DNA of 63,703 nt, counting the filler, from Polymyxa betae A26-41 (taxonomy: Eukaryota > Protista > Endomyxa: Phytomyxea): the NCBI GenBank assembly GCA_003693705.1. It is 4 parts of 4 records of this genome, joined end to end, with 100 filler letters (N's around TTAATTAATTAA, not from the genome) between each part and the next. Parts side by side here need not be neighbours in the genome. Positions count along the whole stretch, not along the records: positions 54,078 to 58,418 come from RBZT01000909.1; 3 more parts are not named here. One strand, given 5' to 3'. Below, in pieces: positions 9,218 to 60,920 of the stretch (the stretch's first letter is position 1; each line of letters opens with the position of its first letter). The notes below the pieces were generated by a model. The model had not been told where the DNA came from. It ran no database searches and saw only the letters and a program-made list of their open reading frames with translations. The position numbers and the translations under genes are program-made.

Positions 9218-12200
9218 ATGTTCGTCGCGCTATCCTTTTTTATCAATGGTAATATCATCGAAACCCAGGCATTGCTCAATAGTTGTTGTACTTCTTTCTT
9301 TATGGATCGCCAATTCGCCGAATCACATCACATCAAATTTGTTTCGCTGGATCATCCAATCCCAGTTCGCACAACTGAAGGGTCTCATTTACGGCATGGC
9401 GATGTTCGGGAGCGTTCCGATATGCTTCATTTACACTCAGTTCTGGGCGATGAGAAGGCGTCTTGTTATATCATCAACTGTCCGCATTCGCCGATTGTTC
9501 TTGGCATCCCGTGGCTGAAAAAACATAATCCACACATTGATTAGCGGAAATGTACCTTACGACCTGGATCTGTCAAAGTTATTGACAGCTCAGTACCCGA
9601 CGCTGAAGGGGGCATGGAGAAATGCGTGCAACTCCCACAAGCGTATTCGGACTATGCAGATGTCTTTGGCTAGTCTCTTATCGACACTCTTCCTCCTCGC
9701 CGTGAATACGACTGTCGAATCGACCTTGAAGACAACAAGAATCCACCATTCGGTCCGATATACTCACCGTCAGAGCCGGAGTCCCAAGCGTTGCGCGAGT
9801 TCATTGCGGAAAATTTACCAAAAAAGCTCGTTCAAGAGTCGACATCTCCGGCCGGCGCTCCCGTCCTTTTTCGTTAAGAAAAAAGACGGGTCTCTAAGGC
9901 TATGCATCAATTATCGCGGCCTGAATGCTATTACCATCCGCAACCGATACCCCTTGCCTCTAGAAAACCAGCTACTGGACCGATGACGATCTGCCCGACT
10001 CTTCACCCGAATTCACCACCGTTCAGCCTACAATCTCGTGCGCATCCCAGATGGTGATGAATTGAAGACCGCCTTTCGGACGCGTTACGGCCACTTTCAG
10101 TTCAATGTCATGCCTTTTGGCCTAACCAACGCTCCAGCTATTTTCCAACACTTTCTTAACGATATCTTCCGCCCTCTCCTCGACAATTTCGTCGTCATAT
10201 ACCTTGACGATATCCTGGTGTATTCTTCTGATCTTACAGAACATCGCGATCATGTGCGTCAATTACTATCTCTCCTCCGTCATCATAGGCTCTGCGCTAA
10301 GCTTGAACAATGCCAATTCGATACTAACTCTACTGAATTCCTAGGTAACATTGTCTCAAGCTCTGGCATCTCTTTGGACCCTAGGAAAATCTAATCCCTT
10401 CTTAATTTGCCGGTCCCCAAGAACCTAAAGCAAGTACAAGAATTCGTCGGTTTCGCGAATTACTACAGCCGATTTATTACTAATTTCTCACAAATTGTTC
10501 GACCGCTCACCAGCCTCGCCAGGAAAGGCTTTCCGTTCCGTTGGAGTGCTCAGCAGGACGAAGCTTTCCGCCAGCTGAAAAAGTCATTCACATCGGCTCC
10601 AATATTGGTACATACCGATTTGTCGAAACCGCTCATCGTCGAGACAGATGCATCGCAGTTCGCCGTGGGTGCCGTCGTATCTCAGTACGACAATGAAGAA
10701 CGACTTCATCCTTGCTGTTTTTCTCTCGCTCTTTGAATAGTGCTGTGTCACGCGATAAGGAGTTGTTAGCAATTAAATGAGCTTTCGAAGAATGGCGACA
10801 TTATCTGGAAGGAGCTTCGCTTTCGGTTCAAGTGCTAACGGACCACGAAAGCCTCCGATATTTCCAGACCATGAAATCTTTATTGAACTGCCATGCACGC
10901 TGGTCCCAATTTTCTCGATTCGACTTTCAGTTCATTTATCGCCCAGGATCCCGGAACGGTAAGGCCGATGCACTGTCACGCCAGTCCGACCTGAAGCCAG
11001 ACCCTACTTCCGACAATCCCGATTCGTTGCCTGCCATGTTCCCGGCCCAATATCCGCATGTCATCAGTGCCGACATAACCATCGATGCTCGAGCGCTACC
11101 TCTCTATGAGCGGCTTCGCACCTTCACCGAAACGGATCATTACGCTCAGAATAAGATGTCCGAATTAACGAATCACGATGCCAACACGCCTTCTCGATTC
11201 TCAATTTCTGGTGGGATATTGTTGTTCGATAATCGCATCTATGTAACCGAGGGAGATCTACGCCTCCATATTCTTCAAATGACGCACGACGCACCCGCTG
11301 CTGGCCACATCGGCCACAGTCGGACTCTTGATCTCATCTCACGTTGCTATTGGTGGCCAAATCTCAGAACGTTTGTAGACCAGTTCGTCAAGAGTTGCGA
11401 TACATGTGCAAGATCGAAGGTTCCTCGCAAGAAGCCCGACGGTTTACTACAGCCCCTTCCCATTCCAGAACGTCCATTCTCTTCCATCGGCGTCGATTTT
11501 ATTGTCTATTTTCCAAACTCTGATGATTACAACAGCATCTGCGTATTCGTAGATCGCTTCACAAAAATGGGCCCCCCGTGCTCCGGTCCTCCTTCAGCAC
11601 CTTCAACTGCGCAGCTCGTCATCGATCATATCTTCTGTTTTCATGGACTTCCTGACCAGATAATTTCAGATCGCGGACCGCAATTCATCTCCAAATTGTG
11701 GACACGCGTTGTTGAATTACTCAATGTCGATGTTTCGCGTACATTCGGATATCATTGTCAGTCTAATGGGCAGACAGACCGCCTGGATCAGACCTTAGAG
11801 CAATATCTGCGATGTTATGTCAATTATCAGTAGAATGATTGGTGAAAGATGCTTCCTCACGCCGAATTCACGTACAACAATTCTGCTCATCGTCGCTAAG
11901 TCTTCTCCGTTTTTTGCTCTGTACGGCTACCATCCCATATTTGATCAGACTGTTCCTTCTGTTTCCCAAGTGCCGCGAGCCGAAGAATGTGTTCAAAATT
12001 TGAAGGATCTGCATGAGTGGCTGCGCACACAAATTCGGTCTGCACAAGTGTCATATTTTCGACACGTTAACCGGTCGTGATCGCCAGCGCCCGTCTACTC
12101 GGTTGGCGATAAGGTCTGGATGTCCGCTGAAAACGTCCGGTCTGCACGCCCTTGTGCTAAACTCGCTTCGAAACGGCTCGTCTTGTCAGTCCAAGCGCCG

Positions 12201-12590
12201 CAGAGCTCGAGCTTCCGGCGAATATGAAAATCCATCCTGTTTTTCATCTTCACTGTTGTATCCTTACCTCCAGAAATACTTTCTCGAACCGCATCCAACC
12301 TCCTCCAGATCCAGTTTGTATTGAAGCTGATCCCAGCCTGACTCCACATTTTCTCGTTCGTTCCATTCTTGATTCTCGTTAGTATCGAAATAGCCTGCAA
12401 TATCTTTTCGATTGGGTCGGCTATGGTCCCTCCGATCGTTCTTGGGAGCCAGCGTCTACGATTCGCAAGGATATTCCAGATGTGGTTGAGGCTTTTCACA
12501 AGAAATTGCCGTTGGCAGCAGGTCCTGCTTTACGTCTTCCGCGTCCTGATAATTCCAATCAGTATCGCTTCCGAGCGCCTCGCAGTCGCT
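9218..12590 (+). pseudogene. pol: Pol: protease, RT, RNase H, integrase, chromodomain (stops and frameshifts)
   Basis: ALLNSCCT (degenerate DSG); [19 protein letters not shown]; MPFGLTNAP; VIYLDD; ETDAS; TDHESL; H..P.AGH..C..C; SDRGPQF; QSNGQTDR; chromodomain VRSILDSR..LQYLFDWVGYGPSDRSWEP (~12350-12450). Confidence 0.93.
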
Positions 12591-12608
12591 CCTTTAAGAG
12601 GGGGGTAA

Positions 12609-12807
12609 TGTCATGACTCATTATCCTGATCCCGACTGTGTGTCACCTGTTATTTCCCGCTGACACAATTTTCCTTCTTTTCCTATAAATTGTGACAATA
12701 TAATACATTTTTGAATCTTACGCTTTTTTAGCACATTCGACTTCACTTACTTGCTTCTATTCCGAGCTTTCTAGTTACCTTTCCGGCTTTTACGCTCGTT
12801 CCTGACG
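12609..12807 (+). repeat. 3' LTR of Ty3/gypsy element
   Basis: Direct repeat of 7813-8009; terminal CA mutated to CG; preceded by a polypurine tract. Confidence 0.95.
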
Positions 12808-12812
12808 CCCCT

Positions 12813-13640
12813 GCTCAGTAAGAGCAATGAATACTTCAAATGGAATCGACAAGTCCGGTTGGCCTTCGAAGCAAACGATCAATAGAAATATCTAACAGCG
12901 ACGCCAACTGCAAAATCAAAGAAGCAGGACAAGGCTGCAAAAGGATTCTCCTAAGTAGTCTCAGCGTCGTTTATCAAGACGAGGCCAAGAAAGGTGCTAA
13001 TGAAGTATGGTATTACATGGCTATCGTTGCGAGTCAACTTTCAGTCTACACAGCAACTGAAATGAGGTGTGAATTCTATGGCAAGAAATTATGACCAATT
13101 GAGGATATAATTAAATTCATCATCCGGAAAAAGGAACTGTATTTAAACGCTAACAAAAGCTCGCTCCAAACAGTGAATGATATTACTTTATCACATGCAA
13201 TAGTACTATGCACGCGGCAGCGGTTCAAAAGTTTGGTCGAAGCCTACTGCAAGTCAACCAGCATCCTATTGACGAACTGACCAATCAAATTCCAGAAGCT
13301 GAGAAAGCGAGAGTCCATAAAACACGGATTCATTCGCTCTAAGAGTTTCAACAGCTTGCGGCTATGTAACAAAATCATGCAGGAGGCGAAGCAAATTGTT
13401 GGAAACAATTCCCAACCAAAAACCAAAAATGCTGAAGGAGAAAGGAAACTCGAACGCGAAACTCGCTAATGACGCTAAAGACACTGATAAAGAAATATTT
13501 TCTGTTTATATTACCTTGTGTACTTCGGATGTGTGGATAGCTGATACAGTATGCAGCAAAACCATGACTGGAACAAAATCCAAGTGTTTCAATCCTGCCA
13601 GACGCAACCGTGATCGAGATTGTCGATAATAAAATTATGT
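12813..13640 (+). pseudogene. Copia gag-protease remnant (continuation of the element whose LTR/PBS is at 7456-7752)
   Basis: Gag-like KGANEVW; degenerate knuckle near 13357-13400; protease motif VWIADTVCSKTMTG. Confidence 0.65.
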
Positions 13641-26230: not shown

Positions 26231-27142
26231 CACAAAAATATTCCATCTACAGCAAAATTTTGAAAACAAACTTGGTGTCCCACTACCAAGCTCTGCGCAA
26301 TTCCGGAGGTCAGCTTCAATATTGACATCTCTCTCGTGTTGCTGTCATGATGTTTGGTTTCACCTTGCCATGCTGCAATGGGCGTGAGGGTTCTTTGGAC
26401 AGATGACAGTGCAAATATACGGCCCGTTTCTAGGGTGCTTAATATCGGTGTCGCACTGTGCTCTCTGCCTAAAAAATCCTCATAGAAAGAGATAGGGTGT
26501 ACGGCACAATGTAATATCGGTCACCCGAAAGAATGGTCGACCCCCCGTCTCTTTCGTGCTCATTGTGTTCGAACGGCTATAGGTTGAAATCAAAGACATC
26601 ATTGGCGACATCATCTGATGAAAGTGGTTCCAATATTTGATCTAGAGCAGGATTGCATGTTATACTGTTACATGTAAAGGTATCCAGGTATCTACAGAAT
26701 CGAAAAATCTTGTTTTGTGGCTTTTTTCTTTTTACTTTCACTTTGTTACAGAAAGGGTCAATTTTCGAATATTTTAGTGAATTTTCGATGACAGCTAGGT
26801 CGCTCTTCTGCCGAGAACCAAATAGAGCCCAGATTTCGTCCGGTGAGCTTTTTGTGTGTCTGGAAAAGGAATGATCACTTTGGTTATGGTTTTCAAGAAC
26901 TGGCATCCTTGTAACGTGATGGTTGGCTATCGCATACAAGTCCAGATTAGAAAGATTTTGCTGATAGAAACCAATTAAAATGCAATCCAGAATAAAGCAC
27001 ACATAATCATAATTCCATTGAATTAAACAACATTGATTTGACATTGATACGTAGCAAACCATCATGCTGTAACATCCTGCGAATGTTCACTAATTCATGC
27101 CAAAGTATCACGCGTATTGCATGCTTCGAGCATTCTGCGTTT

Positions 27143-30100
27143 TGTTGGAATGAAAATTAAGGTTTTAGGGTTTGATCGGAAGGTGACCCAGGATCGATTC
27201 CGCAGTCCGACGAGTCAAGACTTCCCTTTCCGGTCCCGATCGGACCTTCCGTCGTGAATATATGGAAATAATGGACACACTGGATTTCTCTTACATTGTG
27301 ATACTTCTCGTTTATTGGAACTTTCACTAACAGCACCACTTCCAAGAGGTTATGGGCCCAGTCAACGCTAACATTTCTGCAAACCAAGCTGCTGACTCTC
27401 CCAACCCAGCAGCCCCAGCAATACCGAGGCAGAAACCAATCGACGGGACTCCGACTTTCCGTTCAACTCCAGGAGGCCCTTGCCACGTCATGCCTCTACG
27501 GCTCTTCTCAACTCCCGCCCCGCCAACCATCACGGCAACCCCTCAAGGAACCGCATCCTCGTTGTCCTCCGCGAACGGCACGTCCACGGATCGACCTTCG
27601 TGGCTTCCAATGCTGATGGCCTCATTAAATGGCATCAACCACTCCCTTAGACAGCTTGCGCAACTTAATGCGCAGCCCTCCCTGCCGGATCCCATCGAAC
27701 AACGAGCAGAAGAGGACACGCCCGCTCCGCCGGGTCCAGAAGCGGAGAGGGCCACGCCTGGTCCGACATCCCCACCTGTTCCGGTGGCAGAGCCGATTTG
27801 GACGCTATAACAGCTGCGACGGACAATGCCCCGACGGTGCGGGCAGCTACTCAAACCCCCACGTCCACTCTGGCACACACGCCAGCCACGACCCCCACGA
27901 CCATGTCTAAGACTGGCGCATCATGCAACTCAACGACGAGCTGGACAGTCTAAGGTTCCCCTTCAACCTTGCTCTGGTTGACAAATTTATCACTTCCGTG
28001 GATCGCATTCGATCCGAGCTGATAGATATTGGCGATCATGAACGGGTTGAAGATTGCCGACTTGGACTGCGAATTGCGCAGAAATTGCCCGCCGACTCGT
28101 CAAAGCAGGAGGTTCTCCGACGGAGAATGACTTGGACTGAGATCAAACACGATCTCAAACTTGAGCGCAGCCTCCTTCGACGTGCGCCAACCAATTAAAA
28201 TCCATCATCCAATTCTCATAGCAAACCCTCGGACAATCTCTCTTGCACTTACTGCAAGAAGAGAAACCACGTTCGCGAAGTTTGCAGAAAACGAAAAGCG
28301 GATGAATCAAAGCCGGATCGCAACGACCGCACCGACTCCAAGCCTTCCAAAAAAGGCAAAGTCGGCTCCATTATCGATCAGGAAATTCAAAATAAACTGA
28401 GCGAATTTGAAGCCTATCCAAATCTCACTCCAAATGTAGAATTCGAAACGCATTTTCCAGTTTCACTCCCTACAAAGACAGCAATCGCCGGGTACAAATG
28501 GCTGAATACTCAAAAATATCAGTAGAAGGAACGGGTACGATCTCCATAAAAACCGCGCCTTCGAAGAGCTCAGATTCAATCATACTGAATTTGAAAAAGC
28601 GTAAATTATATTCCGCAACTTTCCGGAAATTATTTTTCCGTAAGGGCGGCTGCAGACAGCGGCATAATCTGCATGTTTCTATATGAAAACGTGTTACTCT
28701 TCACAGCAGTCGAACATAAACTCATTGCTGTTGGCAAAAGTCGAGATGATCTGTATTACCTTTCTGGTACTTTAATCAATCTAAAATCACAACAAATAAA
28801 CAAAATTTGCATGACTGCGAATTCAGCTTCCGAAGCACTTTGGCATGCTCGCCTTGGTCACATTAGCAGAGATCGCTTGAAAGTCCTCTGGCTAAAGAAC
28901 ATGGCCAATGGCATGAAAGTAACTAATCGGAAAGATTTCCGCTGCATCCATGGAAAAGGGACCCGAACTCCTTTCCGAACGCATTCAAAGAATGCGAGAG
29001 CGACCGAGACACTGGGACGAGTATCCACGGACCTTTGCGGACCCATGCGCCAAACTCCCGCATTTGACGGTGAGCTGTACGCAATGATCATACTCGACCA
29101 GTACTCTCACTATGCTGAAGTATGTTTCCAAGGAGAAAAATCAGAAGCGCTCAATTTTTTCAAAATCTATCACAACAGAGTGACAAACTTGCATAGAAAA
29201 GGCATAATTGCACTCGGTGTTGATGGAGGGGGGTGAATTCAACTCCATCGAATTTTTAAAATTCCTTAATAAAAAGGGAATAGTTAGAGCGAACAATGCC
29301 GCACAGTTCTCAGGAGAATCCATCCTCCGAGAGAATTAACCGCACAGCCACGGACATGGCTCGCTGTATGCTGCACTATGCAGGAGCTCCAAAAATATTT
29401 TGGCGAGATGCCATGAAAATGGCCATCTATGTTCACAACAGAACCCAAACCAAAGCGCTAAACTCAAAGACTCCATACGAGACTTGGTTTAATTCAAAAC
29501 CCGATCTTTCCAACTTAAGAATTTTTGGATGCACAGCCTACGCTATAATCCCAGAATCACAGCGTCACAAATTCGATGATAGGGCAATAAAATGTGTATT
29601 CCTCGGCTACTTAGACACGAGTTCTGGATACCTTCTTTTTGACATCAAAAATAACTCTTTTATTGAAAGTAGAGATGTCCGCTTTAATGAAGAAAATTCC
29701 AATTCCGCGAATTCGATCAAACAGACCCCTTTTTCGATTTCGGATTCGAAAATGCGGCTGATGATGATTATGTCCAAACTGGAATTATCGACCAAATCTC
29801 AGGAAGCAGGCCCCAAGTTGAAGACAGAGAAAATGATCACCTCTCTAATAGTATTCACCATACATCTTCAAATACAGGCCTAGCCCCAATTTCTGGTGTC
29901 TTAATAAACAATGCAGAACTTCCCCTGACCTCTACCGGTGGTTCCGGAGATGATCACGGAGTCCGCAATTCCACCGGCAGCCACCCTGATGAAGGGACGC
30001 GGCGCTCAAAACCGCAAACGAAGGCAGCGCGACTTGGGACCCTACCTAAGCAGTCAAAACTTGGCCATCCACTCCGTTACAAAAATTTCCAGGTTCACGT

Positions 30101-30336: not shown

Positions 30337-30436
30337 NNNNNNNNNNNNNNNNNNNNNNNNNNNNNNNNNNNNNNNNNNNNTTAATTAATTAANNNNNNNN
30401 NNNNNNNNNNNNNNNNNNNNNNNNNNNNNNNNNNNN
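30337..30436. other. Artificial contig spacer (N44-TTAATTAATTAA-N44)
   Basis: Six-frame-stop linker inside an N run; identical spacers at 53978-54077 and 58419-58518. Confidence 0.97.
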
Positions 30437-30539: not shown

Positions 30540-33500
30540 ACCGCTACAACTGGCAGCTAAGCACAATGTCAAATTGAACTTGAAGAAATGTGATTAGTTC
30601 ACTCGCAAGGTCAAGTTTTGCGGAAGGATATTTACTCCGAGCGGAGTTGCACATGACACCGATCGGATGACGCCCTGCTTGCGATCCCTCAATCCAAAAC
30701 AGCTAGAGATTTGCAGCAGTTTTTGATGGCAACACAATGGATGAGCAGGTCAATCCCTGAATACAACAAAATAGTTCATTGGTTGCAGGACATCTTTGAA
30801 CACAGTACGAAGGACCAGCCATCGAGGAACAAGAGCGTTGCGCGGCAAGTTAGACTATCCAAATACGGATGGAGCCCACAACATGCTCTCGCATTTGAGA
30901 AACTGAAGACAGCAATCGCTAACAATGTCAAATTGGCGTATCCAAGAGAAGATATGGTCCAGTGCATGTTCACTGATGCCAATGAATCCAGTACCGCTGG
31001 AGTGGTGACTCAAATCCCAATAGAAGATATAAATAAACCTGTGTCATTACAAAGTCATGAACCATTAGGATTCATAGGCCACAGGTTCAATAGATGCGAG
31101 ATGAACTGGAGTGTTGCTGAAAAAGAAGGGTTCGCTATCAAAGACACGATGGAGAAACTAGATTATTTATTACAGATGAAACGGCCAACCAAATTATTCA
31201 GTGATCACCAAAATCTAATACAGATTTTTTCACCAACGAATGTGTCAAAGCCAACAGCACAAAAGCTACAGAGATGGGCCCTTTACATGCAGCGATTTCA
31301 TTATCAAATCGAGCATATCATAGGAGAAGAAAATATTTGGGCCGATCTGATGACAAGATGGGGGACGAAACCTGTTGATGAAGAAGGCTCTACGCATCAA
31401 ATGGTCCGTAGAGTGCGAACGGTAACGGTCCCAGATGACCGGAAGATCAGACCATTACAGAACCCCGCCTTCGAATGGCCTACTATGGAAGAAATAAAGG
31501 AAAGTCAGAAGAAATGGCTATCAACTATGACTCGCCAAAAAATGAATGAAGGTTTAATAGTCACAGATTAGAAGAAAGTGATAATCCCTTCAAAAGCAGA
31601 AGACTTGCGATGCCGTTTGAGTATAATTGCGCATTCGGGAGGAAACAGTGGACACTTAGGGTATCAGGCCAGCACGCAGAAATTGACGCAGTTTTTCTAC
31701 TGGAAGAATTGTACTGAAGACGTGAAAGCAATTTGTTATTCATGTCTGCACTGCCTGCCTACGAGAGGAGGAATGCGGATTCCACGGCCTTTAGGAACCC
31801 AGGTTCACGGTCAACGACCGAACGAAGTTTTGCATTTGGACTGGATATACACATGGCCAATGAAGAAGAATGGTATTCATGAATACCAGGTGAATCTAAT
31901 CTTGCGAGATGACCTATCAGGAATGATAAAGATAACACCCGCAAAAATTCCCGATACCTCCGTGACAGTAGAGGCCTTGATGGAGTGGAGGGCCCTGTTC
32001 GGAGCACCAAAAGTACTGGTCTCTGATATGGCATCCTACTTTGTTTCGACGACTATGAAGGAGTTTGCCAGAAGGTGCAATATGAGCCAAAATATCACTA
32101 CGGCATATGGACATTACAATAACGGCACTATTGAGGTTATTAATAAAATTTATTTAGCCTTAGTACGAGCCCTTTGCCCGAGCTCAGATGGGAGAAGGGG
32201 TACTGGCCATGGTTGAACCGCAATGTCGAACACACCATAAACCATAGAGAGCAGAGCCGTCTGAATGGCAATGCGCCAGTGACAGTGATGACTGGATTGA
32301 AACCTGACAATCCTTTGGATGAAATTTTCAAAAATCCCAAAACTGCGCAGTTTTATAGAAACTGCGTCGACAAAATGAATATTCAGAAGAAAATCGAAGA
32401 CCTTCGGACTGCGCTAGACAGCATGCATAAGGCAGTCGCGGAGAAATCTGAAAAGCAGAGGACACTGAAGAAACAAAATCAGAGGAATTTTAGAAAAGAG
32501 CCAAACTTCGGAATAGGAGACTTCGTCCTGGTTGGTGTACCGGAGCCAACAAAGATGACTGGACGTAAACTATTTCTAAAGTGGCGAGGCCCATACCGGA
32601 TCACTGATACTGAAGATACTATGTGTTCGAAGTAGAGAATATCATCGATCACAGTAGGAGCCGGATCCATGGTGACCGGATTCAACTATATACTGATTCC
32701 AAACTTAATGTTACAGACGAAATAAAGAAGCAGTTCGCACATGACAATGAATCGTATCAAGTGAGCGATTTTATTGACTGCAGACTCAATCCTGAGACTG
32801 GACAGCTAGAGTTGCTGGTCGACTGGAAAGGATTCACGAAAGAAGAAAATTCATGGGAACCCCTGAAGAACCTGTTTGAAGACGTTCCTGAATTAGTGAA
32901 GAAATATTTAAAGAAACTGCGCAACGAAAAAGATGCGCTCGCAGAATGTGTAGAGAAAAATTTACTATTGTTTTCAAGCTTTTATCCCAATGGGTTTTAA
33001 TGCTGAAACTATAGCAAATGATCAGTAAGTACGATTTTTTAGATGACATAATGAAATGAATTTAGATAAAATTATTTATAAATAAATAATGATACTGATG
33101 GCTGATGACAGATGATTATTGATGAAACTCGATGATAGCGCTACGATGACTTACAATAAAGATGAAGTTATATGGCGAACTTGATGATCGGATCTGATAA
33201 TGATGACCTTTGGATGAAGATGAAAAGAGATGACAAGAAAAGACATAATGAACTATGATAAAGACCAGTCATGAAACCCTAAACTCTATGTACAAGAAGG
33301 ATACTAAAGACTATCGAGATTTTGAGGACGGGAGTGTAGCAAATTATTACTTTTTTATAAGAAAATACAAGAATAGTTTGCAAGTTTTCAAGCTACAGCT
33401 GCGCTAAGATTCGCCCACGGAGTCCTACGGACTCCGTGACGGCATTTGGGTCCTGGGATTTCCCATGATAAAAATACAGAATCATTATTGATTTTACCTT

Positions 33501-54077: not shown

Positions 54078-57062
54078 ACGTAGGAGACAAACGACACACA
54101 CCCGACCATTAGAGTCAACCAATAAACCCTCCGAATTCCTCAGCAAATTGCTATTGGGAAAGTATAACTTTTGCTCTCTAGCAATCTCAGAGGTGTCTGG
54201 CCAGACAATATTTAGGAGCGGCTGTACTCTAATGTTCAAATCTGGGTCAGAAATGGTAGGATTAATATGTTCGTCATGATGAGCTATCGACCGTCTCAAT
54301 GAGCGAATATTTGGAACGGGGTCTTTGTCATAATAACCTCCTCCCCAGCGTGCAATCAAATCTACCCCAATGATTAAGCTCACCTGGGATATGATGGATT
54401 ACGTAATTGAAATCACTTAATTCTATTCCCCAGCGAATAAGACGCTCCGCTGATTGCTTGGAGCATTTCACCGGATTATACATGAAAAATAAATTTCGAT
54501 GATCTGTAAATAAGTGGAATGGTTTTGACATACGTAATAAGTACTCAAGCTTTTTATAGTATCTTTAATGGCGAAAGCCTCTTTGTCAATTGTGGCCCAA
54601 TTTAGCTCCGACCTATTGAAACGGTGACCTACGAATCCTAAGTGTTTGTGGTGCTGCTCATGAAATGATTTCTTAAGATCCTCAATGGGTATTTGTGTAA
54701 CAATACCGGAACTGCAAGCATAGCTTGCGTCACAAAAGACGCATTGAATCATGTCATCATTGGGATAACTTAATCTGACCGAATTAATAATAGCTGATTT
54801 CAGGCGGAAAAAAGCCTGGTCATGGAAACAGCTCCATCCATAGGCCGCTAAGCTAACGCGATTTGCGACCGTTTTCGTTCTTTATAGCTGGTCCTTCATA
54901 GCCTGTTCAAAGATATCCTGTAATGGAGTAACAATATTATTGTAATTGGGGATTGAACGGCTCATCCATTGAGAAGCCATCAACAATTGTTGCAATTCCC
55001 TAGCTTTTTTCGGAACAGGAATGTCCGTCAGTGCGTGAATTCGGGATGGATCATGAGAGACCCCTTTTTGGCTAAATATTCTTCCACAAAATTTAACTTC
55101 TCGTAAAAAGAAGAAACATTTTTCAATATTTAATTTTAAATTAAATTCCCGAGCGAGTTCCAATGTGCGGCTGAGAATCAAGAACCAAGATTCTTCAGAG
55201 GACGCATGACCTAATAGATCATCTATCCAAATGATTAAAGATTTAAATAAAAGCTCTTGGAATATTTCAGCCATCCGAGCCTGCAATTGGGTGGCCGAAT
55301 TGGAAGCTGCTTGAATGGATCGCGTCGGCGTAAACACGCCTCGATCTGTCATAAAAGAGAAAATCTCACGACAGCTTGGGTCCAAAGGCATAATCCAAAA
55401 GCCTTTGAATGCGTCAAGTATAAACCAATACCTGGATTTACCTAGATAGTTAACTATCGACTCAAGAAAAGGCATAGGCCAGGCTGTGGGTTCGCATTGA
55501 GCACTAACTGCTCTCAGGTCTACAACCATGCGAAAACCGTTCGATTTCTTAACGATTTGAACGGGACTAGCCCATTTGGCATTGTAGTTCTCATAAATGA
55601 GGCCAAACTGTTTTAACGTTGTCGTGAAATCGTGAAGAAATTCACTTTGTTCCACCGTATAAGAACGGGCTTTGCACCGAACAGGTTTGGCATCTGGTTT
55701 CAAATTCGTCTTAAATGGTGTTACAAAAGCAGGTGAATCCGGGCCGATTTTCAAACGAAACGTGTCAATATATGTAAACAGTAATTTTAATAATTGATGT
55801 TCGTATTCTGGCGAAATGCCATTATTAATAGCTTCTTTAACTTTTGATCTAATTAAAATAGCGATTTCTGATAAACCATCACTACCAATTTCAGGACTTT
55901 CCTTAATATTCGTTTCATAAGTTGGCTTGGAATCTGCGCTGCTTTCAGTAACATTTTCAGCGCTGGCTCTCGTGAGGGTGTCCAAAGCACTTCTCGGGTC
56001 GATGCCTATTGCCGTTAAAAAATCATTGCCTAATAAAAGCGTATCTTTCAGCTCATTAAGTATAAGACATCGCTGTTTGGGCACGATTACGTTACTAATT
56101 TTTATTTCGATGGCAATATCGAGGTCTAATGCTCGAAACGTCTCGATTTTTTCCCCGTTAGGTAATTCTAAAACAACAGGTTGGTCCAAAGACAAAATCT
56201 CTATATCCTTAATGTTGGATTTTAATAAATTAGCAAGGTCATTTGAAATCAAAGTCAAGTCAGCACCACTATCGAGTACTGCGTCGCATGTTATGTTACT
56301 GCAGGCCAAAGTAACTTTAGCTATCGATTGGCAATCAGCGTTAGCAAAGCGAGCGATGATATAGTGAGAAGATTTAGGAGGTTTATAAGTGCCCTTATTA
56401 ATTAAATGCTGAATACAGAGCTTCTTTTGCTCTTCTGGGGATGGTTTTTCAGGACAGTTTTTAATATGATGCCCTTTCTTCTGGCACTGAAAGCAAATCA
56501 TGTCGCTTTCTGACTTTGAATCCAGTTTCGGCTTCTTCGATTCTGTATTGCCTGCATTGCCCGAAAAAGATCGTTTTGAAGAAAAAGGTCGGAAACGGGA
56601 AGAATTCGGAACATCATAATGAAATATGGGCGTGTAATTTCGACCTTTTCATAAAGAAGTGCAGATAATTTAGTAGGATCACGTTTAATAGCCGGATTCC
56701 ATTGAATGGCGTTCATAACATCATTTTTTAAATTTCCAAGGTAAAAGAGCATCAACAACAGCGCGAACATAATGTTTACGGCCCTGCTCGCTCTCAAAAA
56801 TAGACCCCCAATTGTTGTCATGAATAAGTTTTTCAAACTGTTGATATAAATTCAAAATTCGGTCACGAGGCGGTAACGTAAGGTCTATTTTTAAGCTTTT
56901 AGACACCGTCTCACCTATCGTATGAAGGGAATCCTTATCAGCTATGAGATAATCCTCAAAAGCTTCCAAAAGTAATTCATCAGTAAGATCATCAAGAATA
57001 ACACCTGCAAGTTTCGTGCTAAGCTTTCGAAGAGCTGAAACAGCGCTGGGGGCGATCATCAT
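54078..57062 (-). mobile_element. Ty3/gypsy gag-pol (gag, CCHC, protease, RT, RNase H); same family as 30540-33542; 5'-truncated, no LTR
   Basis: CFQCQKKGHHIKNCP; VLDSGAD; WASPVQIVKK; LDAFKGFW; IWIDD; LQQLLMASQWMSRSIP; FCDAS; DKEAFAI; FTDHRNL. Confidence 0.93.
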
Positions 57063-57332
57063 TCTCAAGGTGGATCGGTGAAGCTGGGCGACATGGAGGT
57101 TCAAGCCATGTGTTCGTCAGGCTTGACAGCCTGCCTTCAGGAGCTGATGGACCGCCGAGACGCGAGTACAGTTTCGGTGTGCACCACCTGCAATCGCATT
57201 GGAACCCTGTGTGACTGTGAAGTTGATATCGGCCTGACTCGAGCGATGGTGGTACCGTACTCGACTTTGGTGTTGGACGTGATAAACGCTGTAACTATTG
57301 GCTCCAGCTTTCAGTACTTCCCCAAAGAGTGA
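57063..57332 (+). pseudogene. C-terminal fragment of a divergent DNA-directed RNA polymerase second-largest subunit (Rpb2/beta domain 7), virus-like
   Basis: SQGGSVKLGDMEVQAMCSSGLTACLQELMDRRDASTVSVCTTC..LCDC..VVPYS aligns by eye to the Rpb2 GGxRxGEME..G...L.E....SD...V.vCxxC..C..C...vPY clamp/zinc region. Confidence 0.75.
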
Positions 57333-57373
57333 GTTAGACTTGTTTTAAAACACGAGACTGTTGACCAAATCCG

Positions 57374-58257
57374 CTATGGATTTGGAGAACACAAAGGGCT
57401 AAGTATGTCCCGGAGCAGCTTCGTGCTTCGAAATCTCTTCCATCTATCGGATGACTTCCCGACGTAGGGTGAGGCGAGATACACACTCCAGCTATTCTCT
57501 TCGAACAGAACTATCTCTGACAGGAACGGTTCGTCGACCTTGGCTACTACTTCTATCAGCTTCGGACTCTCGATCGGATCTTGTCCCTCAGGTAGGTCCG
57601 ATATGTCAACCAAAAGTCTCTGACGCTTCGACAAGTCCGGTGGGGTTGTGGAGTGGAGCGTTAGCGGAGCGGAGCTCGTAGCTCGCTTAGTTCCGGTGCG
57701 AGCTTGATTGTGACGTCCTCTGACTTGTTGTAGTTGGTGGGTAGAGATTTCGCTAGGTCCTCTATCAGCTGATGCCGACACGGAGTTGCGCCTAGTACTT
57801 TAGGGTCTGAGCGGAATCTGCGGTTCATCACAATTAGAGCGGTGACAGCTACCGATCTCACTACCACCATCAAAACGAAGCTCAACTCGCTGTGAGTGAG
57901 GTTCACGTTGTCGATGTGTGCTCCGTAACGCTCCAGGTCACTCCAGATATACTGTGTGAACTTGCCTTGAACTTGAACGCCGCGCCTGCTCATCCGATTG
58001 TGTGGCACTTTAGTACCAGAAGGCAACGAGCCTTTGAGCGCCTCCATCCTCCCGTGCACCAACGCCTTTATTTCCTGGGACGGTGTACACTTGGTGAGGG
58101 GAACGCGATCCCACTGACTTGTGAGCTTCGTCGCCTGGATGGCGTTCTCGGCACATTGGTAAGTTAGTCCTTCGTGCGTGAGTGGGGCAGGATATAGATT
58201 GGACAGGAAGGCATGCTCACCGGAGAAGTTGGTGATCAGTCGTGCAACTCCCGCCAT
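57374..58257 (-). pseudogene. NADAR/YbiA-like N-terminal domain fused to an unknown C-terminal region (probable frameshift ~57665)
   Basis: ITNFSGEHAFLSNLYPAPLTHEGLTYQCAENAIQATK..R..L.KCTP.E matches the NADAR start (F.G.Y.FLSNFY...GxxY...EH.FQA.K); similarity is lost after ~63 aa. Confidence 0.7.
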
Positions 58258-58284
58258 TTCGCAACAACCCCGTTGGGCATAAAT

Positions 58285-58418
58285 ATGAAGTGCGCTAAAG
58301 TCATCTCAGACGACGGTGTTGTGTCAGAGAAGTTCGCTTCTGGCGCGCTGCTAGTCGCCAGTGGTGCCGACGGGTCTACATTCAAGTTCGGTGAGTTGTC
58401 CACTATCCGGCAGAATGC
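58285..58418 (+). CDS. 5' end of a hypothetical gene divergent from NADAR, cut by the contig end
   Basis: ATG 27 bp from the NADAR ATG; open to the gap (MKCAKVISDDGVVSEKFASG...). Confidence 0.4.
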
Positions 58419-58518: not shown

Positions 58519-60920
58519 GTTGACTCAAGCTAATTCAACCGGAAGCATTGTCTTCCGCTTGCATGCTATCAAATAAAACACTTCTTCAAACACATTCCAG
58601 TTCAAAACCCTCTCCCGTCTAACAGATTAAGAGTCCCACTTGCCTCTATATATAGCTGCGTGGAGTTTCGCTGCAAAGACAAGCGAACATTCGGGAGAGA
58701 GGTACAACCCTGTCAGGGAGCAGGAGCTGGATTCCAACTGAAAGAGCCAAACGTGAGCCGCAGTTGAGAAGAAGTCGTCAAGTTCCGACTTAGAGAACAC
58801 AAAAGCCGTAGGACAAGCCAAGTTTACTTCCAACATAGAGCCTAGAAGGGCCAAAGCGGCGATCGAGAAACGACGACCGTTATTATGGCGATCACAAGGA
58901 TGACGACCATGAAAGGAACCGGCGACCACAGAGATGGCGACCGAGAAGGCTGCCCGGCTAAACGACGCACGAAAAGATGCGCATTGGAATTGCAGAAGAT
59001 GGCGATCCAGATTACAGCCCCACTTTATCAATCAAAGAAACTCTCGATGTCAACAGCGAAGGGGCGTGGTTAGATCAATCTCGAGATATCNNNNNNNNNN
59101 NNNNNNNNNNNNNNNNNNNNNNNNNNNNNNNNNNNNNNNNNNNNNNNNNNNNNNNNNNNNNCAAAACCCTCTCCCGTCTAACACGTTCCCTAGCAACGGG
59201 AGGAACTGGAAGGTGGATTGCAGGAACATTTGTAGGATATTCTTCAGTATGAGTTAACGTGAGTCACCACTATTGATATCTGGAGATTGGTCCACGGCGT
59301 TCATACTCCCACCATTTGAAATTTGTGGCTTATGACACCATCTTATGATAACTGACGAATTTGCACGAATGCGGAATACAGTTATCGACTTCCCAGTTTC
59401 AGGCTGCCAGCTATGTCTCTGGAGTCGGGGTTAGGGTTTAGAAGATTAGATGGCGGATCCACTGGCTTCTTTACCAAGGTTATCAAAATCGGCCATCAAG
59501 ATACCCTGATCATTAGAGGGGGATACATATAGGACAATCTGATTCGTACAGCAGGCCGACGTCACATCGTAGCATTGCTCACGACTTTGAATCGCAGTAA
59601 TTTCGCTTAGAGCCGCTACTCGAATGACCTAGTCGCCATTTTAATAATCTGTGAAAATTGTTGCAGATCGGCAGCAGGCTTTTGCATTGATACAGAGAAA
59701 CGCCAGATCAGCCTCGTTCAAGAGACACTATCGCTCGTTGATGTCTTTACAGAGATAATCGGAAATTTGTAACTGGCGATTATCAAATCGTTTCTGCAGA
59801 TATTCTCGAATTTGCAATCCTGTTGTACGGCTTGACCATCAAGATAAACATTTGGGCATTGAGAAGCATTGGGATTGATTGCGTCGATATTTGATATCGT
59901 TTGAACTGGAGATGATTTGTTAATGAAGTCTTTGGAGTTGTAACGATCTCAAAAACCGCTGGGGAAAGAAGCCGATAGAGGTCGGAACTAATTGCAATAC
60001 TGCCGCATCGGAGATCACAGCAATAATTTATAGGAGCAAAATCATATTGGTTCCTATTTGACGCCAAAATCGTATGTTTAACAGATCAGTGTTAAGGTGC
60101 ATTATGTCCGGAAAGCCGTTTCAGCAATGAACGGCTCAGCTGGCGTCACTCCGAAGTAAAATGTTTTTCAGGTGACGATTGAAGCTATCGGTACGAGAAA
60201 AGCCTTCACTGCAGTAGGCTCACTTAAATGGACCACTATAATGGATCCAACAATGAGGAACTGAAAACCAAATAGGTCCAGAATTCATCTCACCGAATGT
60301 GACCATCCAAATGCCCACTTCTGCGACACGATTTATGGCAAAGCCCGCATATAGATGGTCTCTCTCCCGTATGCGTCCAGTCATTGCTATGTTATGCAAA
60401 TCATCGATAAGAACCCTAAATAACTTGAGGAGACATTTGACACTCTAAACCTTAACCACTGTCGTAATGATATTTCTCATCTGATCGAGTTAGGAGACCG
60501 GTATCGCAAACAAGGCAGAGTTATCGTTTCTTCACCAAAATCAATGCTACCTTGAAACTTGATCTTTATTCGGTTAACGTTGTTAGATATTTCCTTAATG
60601 GATTGTATTATTGACAGTGGTAATGTCAGACCATGTGTTGACCATCCTACCAGGATTGGATTGGATTGCACTATTTGTTCGCACCCTTCGGCGGAGTGGG
60701 CGGCACAATAACCCTAGTGCGGGGCCTGAACCGTGGTCCAGGTTCTCCTACTTAATATTTTCGGAGATAATTCAGCCCATGAATGATGATCGTATTTCAG
60801 CCCTACAGAGGACTTAGAGACTTTGACAGTGAAGGCAGCCACCTGTTGGCCCAATCCTACAGGCAGTTGAACCCTGTACCTTCAAAAGGCTGTCGAGATC
60901 TCCTCCTGGTTTCCCAGCTT

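Follow-up and report, generated by a model that had tools for sequence, protein, structure and literature searches.

The right-hand end of one contig in this Polymyxa betae assembly carries a few tightly packed coding frames, among them the 3′ end of a gene for a second RNA polymerase subunit (Rpb2), directly beside a retrotransposon remnant, which raises the question of what kind of element they come from and whether that element also exists outside the chromosome. A preliminary description had proposed the edge of an integrated genome from a possibly undescribed lineage of large DNA viruses. The window, that is, the whole stretch of 63,703 nucleotides (nt) analyzed here, consists of contigs joined by N44-TTAATTAATTAA-N44 linkers at 30337, 53978, and 58419; parts lying across a linker from each other are not genomic neighbors. 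The contig with the Rpb2 fragment spans 54078-58418 (4341 nt), with the fragment region at its right end, and the remainder of the window is mainly transposon remnants. Position 58418 is the end of the assembly, not of the element, and one run contig extends 2.7 kb beyond it.

Base composition changes sharply along this contig, as first described: GC content rises from 39.9% (54079-57062) to 52.8% (57063-58418), the latter exceeding all 1120 other 1356-nt windows tested (maximum 52.6%), and the earlier counts over 60-nt lines were roughly recovered (32%, 60-62%, and 52-53%). A second GC-rich stretch lies at 27051-28500 (about 52.6%) and includes a Pro/Ala-rich ORF (27331-27810) with no Pfam match. 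To the left of the Rpb2 fragment, 54078-57062 (minus strand) holds a Ty3/gypsy retrotransposon remnant of the host with a gag-like ORF, zinc knuckle, protease, reverse transcriptase (RT), and RNase H region, the gypsy flank noted earlier being confirmed by Pfam matches to protease and RT. The best named match of this RT is from Plasmodiophora brassicae (55%), followed by Phytophthora (42%) and Spongospora (41%); seven metagenomic proteins (62-65%) rank above it. A chromodomain-bearing gypsy element at 30657-33000 is related to this flank (30696-31217, 65% nucleotide identity over 526 nt), and in the next contig an identical 22-nt sequence at 58603-58624 and 59162-59183 flanks a 71-N gap. Rfam and bacterial promoter scans gave no matches, and an exact look-up of eight window proteins found none.

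At 57062/57063 a truncated gypsy gag meets a truncated Rpb2, with no LTR and no terminal repeat. The junction is placed here because contigs of a closely related sequence, the abundant relative described below, carry the Rpb2 frame on upstream of 57063. Single contigs from three studies cross it with no differences (sequencing runs X1, 56955-57818; X2 and X3, 56970-57826), confirming integration in host DNA, and the depth of the local copy at this point is about single-copy. The left edge is a deletion or recombination junction inside Rpb2, not a terminus, so it does not mark the edge of an integrated genome.

The Rpb2 fragment itself (57063-57332, plus strand) comprises about 89 codons of the 3′ end, with the 5′ side cut off. 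A profile search supports its identity through domain 7 (PF04560; 31.7 bits, E = 2e-7, just below the gathering score of 32.1), and the GGSVKLGDME motif and compressed zinc site (CTTC..LCDC) are present as originally written. The fragment thus has the domain 7 clamp, the G-[ED]-M-E motif, and the zinc site of a two-barrel RNA polymerase (RNAP) second subunit, and its full-length relatives add the HGQKG motif of domain 6. It is 52-56% identical to the proteins P0048, P0049, P0052, and P0054 of a compact Rpb2 family, whereas word-index protein searches with the fragment and with the neighboring NADAR-like ORF returned nothing. A further protein, P0051 from Logan, is 87% identical to the fragment's end but enters it from another frame; it may be an additional copy with a frameshift, or its contig may be erroneous. 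The loose ends of the relative do not conserve a 14-nt hairpin present at 57359-57391.

Cellular Rpb2 proteins are about 1100-1200 amino acids (aa) long. A pseudogene of a cellular Pol I, II, or III second subunit would agree with the best PDB sequence matches of the fragment, which are to cellular proteins, but none of these is significant (E = 0.08 or worse), whereas the compact family is matched at E = 1e-23 in the HMMER search, and neither the family's length of 728-918 aa nor the variable depth between runs is that of a cellular gene. The junction would have to be an artifact were the locus an assembly chimera, yet it recurs in three studies, and the packed neighbors are under selection, which speaks against both versions. 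We regard a cellular pseudogene or a chimera as extremely improbable, and the earlier description of a non-cellular, virus-type Rpb2 stands.

The count of three genes given originally does not hold, as four coding segments are present and the NADAR-like ORF (57661-58257, minus strand, 198 aa) stops at 57661. Spacers of 41 and 27 nt do occur, but the stop at 57374 that bounds the 41-nt spacer lies in another, ATG-less frame (57374-57766, minus strand; conserved part about 57392-57623). This frame, which has no match in Pfam, PHROGs (E < 0.1), or the PDB, may be a separate gene or the distal half of a frameshifted gene. The 27-nt spacer between the divergent ATGs (58258-58284) contains the reported TAAAT, at 58280-58284, just before the ATG at 58285. 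Vaccinia late promoters and those of cytoplasmic linear plasmids, or VLEs, have TAAAT/TAAAN as their initiator (PMC6211774, available part); by analogy, this one instance is a candidate initiator. The following gene (ORF3; 58285-58418, plus strand) is represented by its 5′ 44 codons, cut by the contig end. Its WD40-repeat matches are weak only, its matches to Tako8 were rejected, their scores being summed repeats, and its candidacy as the N terminus of an NCLDV capsid protein was likewise rejected, with 46 of 488 shuffles scoring equally high.

The NADAR assignment made earlier holds for residues ~2-57 (TIGR02464, E = 1.9e-4; phage NADARs, E = 5e-8), where the ORF shares the N-terminal FLSN(L/F)Y...Y...E region with the NADAR family (TIGR02464, phage YbiA-like) at 40-55% identity over 40-56 aa; there is no Pfam match, and the rest is unmatched. 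NADAR proteins carry a catalytic E/D and a WG motif in their C-terminal half. Unlike in the family, this C-terminal catalytic half is undetectable in the local copy, no significant alignment extending past residue 57-65, and an internal deletion at 58071-58075 leaves 3 letters where the relative has 522 (X7, X8), a net loss of 519 nt. The single-sequence structural model of this ORF is uninformative (pLDDT 35).

To place the fragment, we rely on the compact Rpb2 family recovered by HMMER from 1.84 billion representatives (98 matches, 96 of them genuine; P0055 and P0062 were discarded as low-complexity repeats). Because 85 of the 96 share the compressed zinc site C-x2-C-x6-[CH]-x-C, the odd motifs of the fragment can be read as hallmarks of the family. 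Among 30 near-full members, 28 are 728-918 aa long, and two, of 1114 and 1159 aa, are joined to a PF00136 family B DNA polymerase (PolB; E = 1.5e-37, compared with 8e-4 for the protein-primed type, PF03175). Domains 6 (HGQKG) and 7 are kept, Pfam Rpb2_1/2 found no match in the 13 genuine family proteins scanned, and 29 of the 30 end 22-98 aa past the clamp zinc site; the window copy likewise stops after this site. The two proteins with PolB and compact Rpb2 in one predicted polypeptide, P0080 (KAH9806640.1, Melampsora americana) and P0127 (KAI8609734.1, Chytriomyces sp.), may be true fusions or gene-calling joins.

In a tree of 57 rows, 29 family rows fall on one side of a branch (SH-aLRT 99) from 28 references, and the fragment groups with P0048-P0054 (support 88). 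This is an unrooted tree from a quick search, in which the query fills 30% of the columns, the references are 25 IMG/VR and 3 metagenome rows picked by motif, and a single Pol I-like metagenome row represents cellular proteins. The pairing of the fragment with L126 in a first tree was set aside as long-branch attraction. L126:1-1251 encodes an AT-rich, very divergent Rpb2 with several TGA/TAG stops at otherwise coding positions and may reflect an alternative genetic code or a pseudogene.

The contigs that carry family members are small. Looking up 20 clusters listed 44 proteins, on contigs of 0.9-28 kb (longest 28,237 nt); 27 of the 44 lie on contigs of at least 10 kb and none on one over 30 kb, although contigs this short may be parts of something larger, as fragments or as segments. 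In the P0094 cluster (39 members, mostly from ENA metagenome assemblies), 6 of 15 listed proteins are on contigs of 18.9-19.2 kb, which is likely the complete unit length. Four clusters carry names, all of fungi (Aspergillus hancockii, Melampsora americana, Chytriomyces sp., and Pyricularia oryzae), with contigs of 11.9-16.1 kb. Related-locus scans, motif scans, and the family alignment found no family member in IMG/VR, the alignment giving four distant loci; in JGI metagenomes, related-locus scans found nothing, and the 16 matches of metagenome motif scans include none from the family.

Could the locus nevertheless stem from a large DNA virus (Nucleocytoviricota or Mirusviricota), fossilized here but still actively infecting the host? 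NADAR is known from several NCLDV clades (PMC9503650, in the portion available), 50-fold coverage is a mark of active Mycodnaviridae (PMC13533422, in part), NCLDV RNAPs are the top BFVD fold matches of a family member, and weak mirusvirus marker matches, with no capsid, are listed for Polymyxa, Plasmodiophora, and Spongospora. The fold matches are, however, only 12-19% identical and no better than those to cellular Pol I/II/III, the model of P0049 (pLDDT 64) matching viral and cellular Rpb2 folds about equally; the family stands apart from the sampled viral Rpb2s and is 200-400 aa shorter, and the ORF3 shuffles offer no capsid start. A genome of more than ~50-100 kb, as expected of a large virus, finds no counterpart among the listed contigs, fragmented as these possibly are. 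With an Rpb2 of 728-918 aa, contigs of the sizes given above, and no member in IMG/VR, the large DNA virus originally proposed is not borne out, and we consider it unlikely.

Evidence for a form of the element outside this locus comes from sequencing runs. Six studies contributed the 13 runs, out of 24 listed, in which all or part of the stretch occurs, and seven of these runs were examined in detail; X12 and X13 contribute one piece each (446 and 166 nt), which is weak evidence. From their contigs, X2 and X3 were treated as DNA (whole contig covered, no splice joints) and X1, X7, and X8 as RNA (GT-AG joints). Depth for the local copy is 13-17 (X2) and 251-271 (X3) and does not exceed that of the gypsy pieces beside it. 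A set of X3 records with 82-91% identity to the stretch (about 85% overall) reaches 11,670-13,000, or 43-52 times the local copy; this figure comes from a single DNA-type run, possibly the source of the window, and from contig depth, a crude measure. Precedents for such a ratio are VLEs at 9-60x (bioRxiv 10.1101/2025.10.13.682091), an Allomyces virus at ~50x (PMC13533422), and AurliV-1 at 9x (PMC12606086), each as given in the available part of the source.

Loose ends in X3 and X7 carry the Rpb2 frame of this relative upstream beyond 57063, and a 1863-nt X7 contig adds 1645 nt. Among 47 listed differences between the local copy and the relative, third codon positions account for 33, all of them synonymous and spread over all four frames (p = 3e-7); these include 17 of 26 in the NADAR-like ORF, 8 of 12 in the ATG-less frame (all 8 synonymous), and 6 of 7 in ORF3. 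As judged from these listed sequence differences, this shows purifying selection on all four frames of the relative. The local copy is decayed: its Rpb2 is cut at 57063, the NADAR-like ORF has lost its interior, one frame has no ATG, and cryptic splicing occurs. Across the contigs examined, we saw neither an end nor a terminal repeat of the host's own element, and no gene for a polymerase, helicase, or capsid.

The high depth could alternatively reflect a chromosomal repeat family, large and transposon-like, with ~45 near-identical copies and no free replicon. Several integrated copies do exist, because at 58338-58368 X2 shows the sequence of the relative with single-copy depth, and further diverged copies occur in X3 at depth 165-168; such diverged low-copy pieces, the possibly frameshifted P0051, and the setting of the stretch in a transposon graveyard would suit a repeat. 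The relative was not seen, however, at three of four loci (57311, 57413-57557, and 57904-57910) in contigs of X2, a run with an identical organism label, contig absence not being proof; fungal members sit on small stand-alone contigs, no integrase or transposase was seen, and the relative's RNA contigs run unspliced through sites of splicing in the chromosomal copy. We therefore find the repeat quite unlikely and infer that the relative is a free molecule rather than a collapsed repeat.

A free molecule might also live in a co-sequenced organism, such as a root fungus, with only the fossil belonging to the host. An obligate root parasite is sampled together with other organisms, and the named family members are all fungal, but the relative has 85% DNA identity to a copy fixed in the host, compared with at most 47% protein identity to fungal members, and it occurs together with the local copy in four of the seven runs examined, from four studies. 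An origin in another organism is accordingly very unlikely.

The transcripts separate the two forms further. The DNA is intronless, as the preliminary description held, yet five spliced joints of 50-55 nt, four of them antisense to ORFs, appear in contigs from the local copy. These are GT-AG introns at 57207-57260 (54 nt, minus strand, antisense to Rpb2; X7, X8), 57469-57523 (55 nt, plus strand, antisense; X8), 57892-57946 (55 nt, plus strand, antisense; X1, X8), 58159-58210 (52 nt, plus strand, antisense; X1), and, in the sense of the NADAR-like ORF, 57818-57867 (50 nt, minus strand; X1, X7, X8), removal of which shortens that ORF to 135 aa. Splicing as a form of gene repair was rejected, since no ORF on either strand becomes longer once the observed introns are taken out. 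The intron lengths fit the mean intron of 60 nt reported in the accessible text on Plasmodiophora brassicae (PMC4471660). Contigs of the relative cross three of the local intron sites without gaps (X1, X7, X8). Host Pol II would thus transcribe the chromosomal copy into non-coding RNA, and the relative would be expressed as intronless genes. In RNA-type runs, contig depth over the relative's ORF3 region and NADAR region is 4116 and 165 in X1, ~1900 and 153-219 in X7, and 242 and 34-36 in X8; ORF3 may encode an abundant or structural product, contig depth being unable to rank genes.

A small, multicopy, intronless, and tightly packed element with its own reduced RNAP and nuclear fossils resembles the VLEs of yeasts and early-diverging fungi (pGKL2 type; PMC6211774 and bioRxiv 10.1101/2025.10.13.682091, each in part). 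That the element is itself a pGKL-type cytoplasmic linear plasmid would also fit the TAAAN-type initiator and the occurrence of VLEs beyond yeasts. ORF6 of VLEs, however, is a β-β′ fusion lacking most of the clamp, whereas here a free-standing Rpb2 keeps the clamp zinc site and stops shortly past it, in the window copy as in 29 of 30 members; the polymerase joined to Rpb2 in two members looks to be of the PF00136 type rather than protein-primed, and the GC content of 53% contrasts with AT-rich VLEs. Membership among the VLEs is highly improbable.

Compact NCLDV-derived cassettes beside Ty3/gypsy elements are known from fungi (fundsalphaviruses; PMC7017919) and moss (NCLDV-like regions of Physcomitrella; PMC4083422), and the locus resembles them in having, within the family, RPB2 near a family B DNA polymerase with no linked capsid, inserted next to Ty3/gypsy. 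According to the available parts of both sources, these cassettes comprise PolB, D5, an SNF2 helicase, a capping methyltransferase, RPB2, RPB5, and a split RPB1, the RPB2 being placed near pitho-like viruses; they are reported as silent fossils, whereas the relative here is abundant and apparently transcribed. The hosts named in the available part of PMC7017919 include none of the four fungi named here and no rhizarian. Of the cassette genes, only the adjacency of PolB was seen here, in 2 of 30 family members. The moss RPB2 retains a recognizable lobe-entry motif near its N terminus (by eye, within the first 400 alignment columns; PMC4083422, in part), whereas none of 30 family members matches. 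This comparison of N termini by eye, as distinct from a direct sequence comparison, suggests that the compact family differs from the fundsalphavirus and moss RPB2.

The coexistence of an integrated copy and an abundant form in one host has parallels in the Mycodnaviridae of zoosporic fungi (~50x; PMC13533422) and the mirusviruses of Aurantiochytrium (9x; PMC12606086). Those, in the portions of both sources available, are genomes of 300-350 kb with capsid genes; nothing that large, and no linked capsid, was seen here.

On balance, we think it probable that a virus-like DNA element with a compact two-barrel RNAP left the stretch as a decayed chromosomal fragment, present in single copy, and that an ~85% identical relative persists as a small (probably ~19-28 kb), multicopy, extrachromosomal, intronless, and predicted self-transcribing element in a probably plasmodiophorid host. 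The host assignment is based on the best named match of the flanking RT, on intron size, and on a 166-nt match with no differences in a root metatranscriptome. The relative would replicate with a family B polymerase, PolB-Rpb2 linkage being known from two fungal members, and would use its own RNAP and TAAAT-type starts for transcription that the spliceosome does not reach. The NADAR-like protein that it encodes would strip ADP-ribose marks as a counter-defense, a counter-ADP-ribosylation role having been proposed for viral NADARs in the available part of PMC9503650. A piece of the element would have been captured in the nucleus and then hit by gypsy insertion and deletions; host Pol II would now transcribe both strands of this decaying piece into non-coding RNA.

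More broadly, and with somewhat less than an even chance in our estimate, the family represents an undescribed class of self-replicating, self-transcribing DNA viruses or plasmids of ~19-28 kb, with Rpb2s among the shortest free-standing ones of eukaryotic elements, present in ascomycetes, rusts, chytrids, and plasmodiophorids, and with one member replicating at ~45 copies per genome in a root-infecting protist of the plant-virus-vector type. The earlier suggestion of an undescribed lineage apparently holds: in a literature search that touched thinly on the compact Rpb2 family, we found no description of it, nor of any plasmodiophorid DNA virus. The family reaches Dikarya, from which no double-stranded DNA viruses are known according to the available part of bioRxiv 10.1101/2025.10.13.682091. 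Should the abundant form be free, a probable plasmodiophorid parasite of crops has a resident DNA replicon that public data already contain and that is open to assembly. Such an element would be intermediate between giant viruses and killer plasmids and would offer a naturally minimized eukaryote-type RNA polymerase. The question of which left the capsid-less NCLDV-like cassettes in fungi and moss as fossils, big viruses or small autonomous elements, would also become testable.
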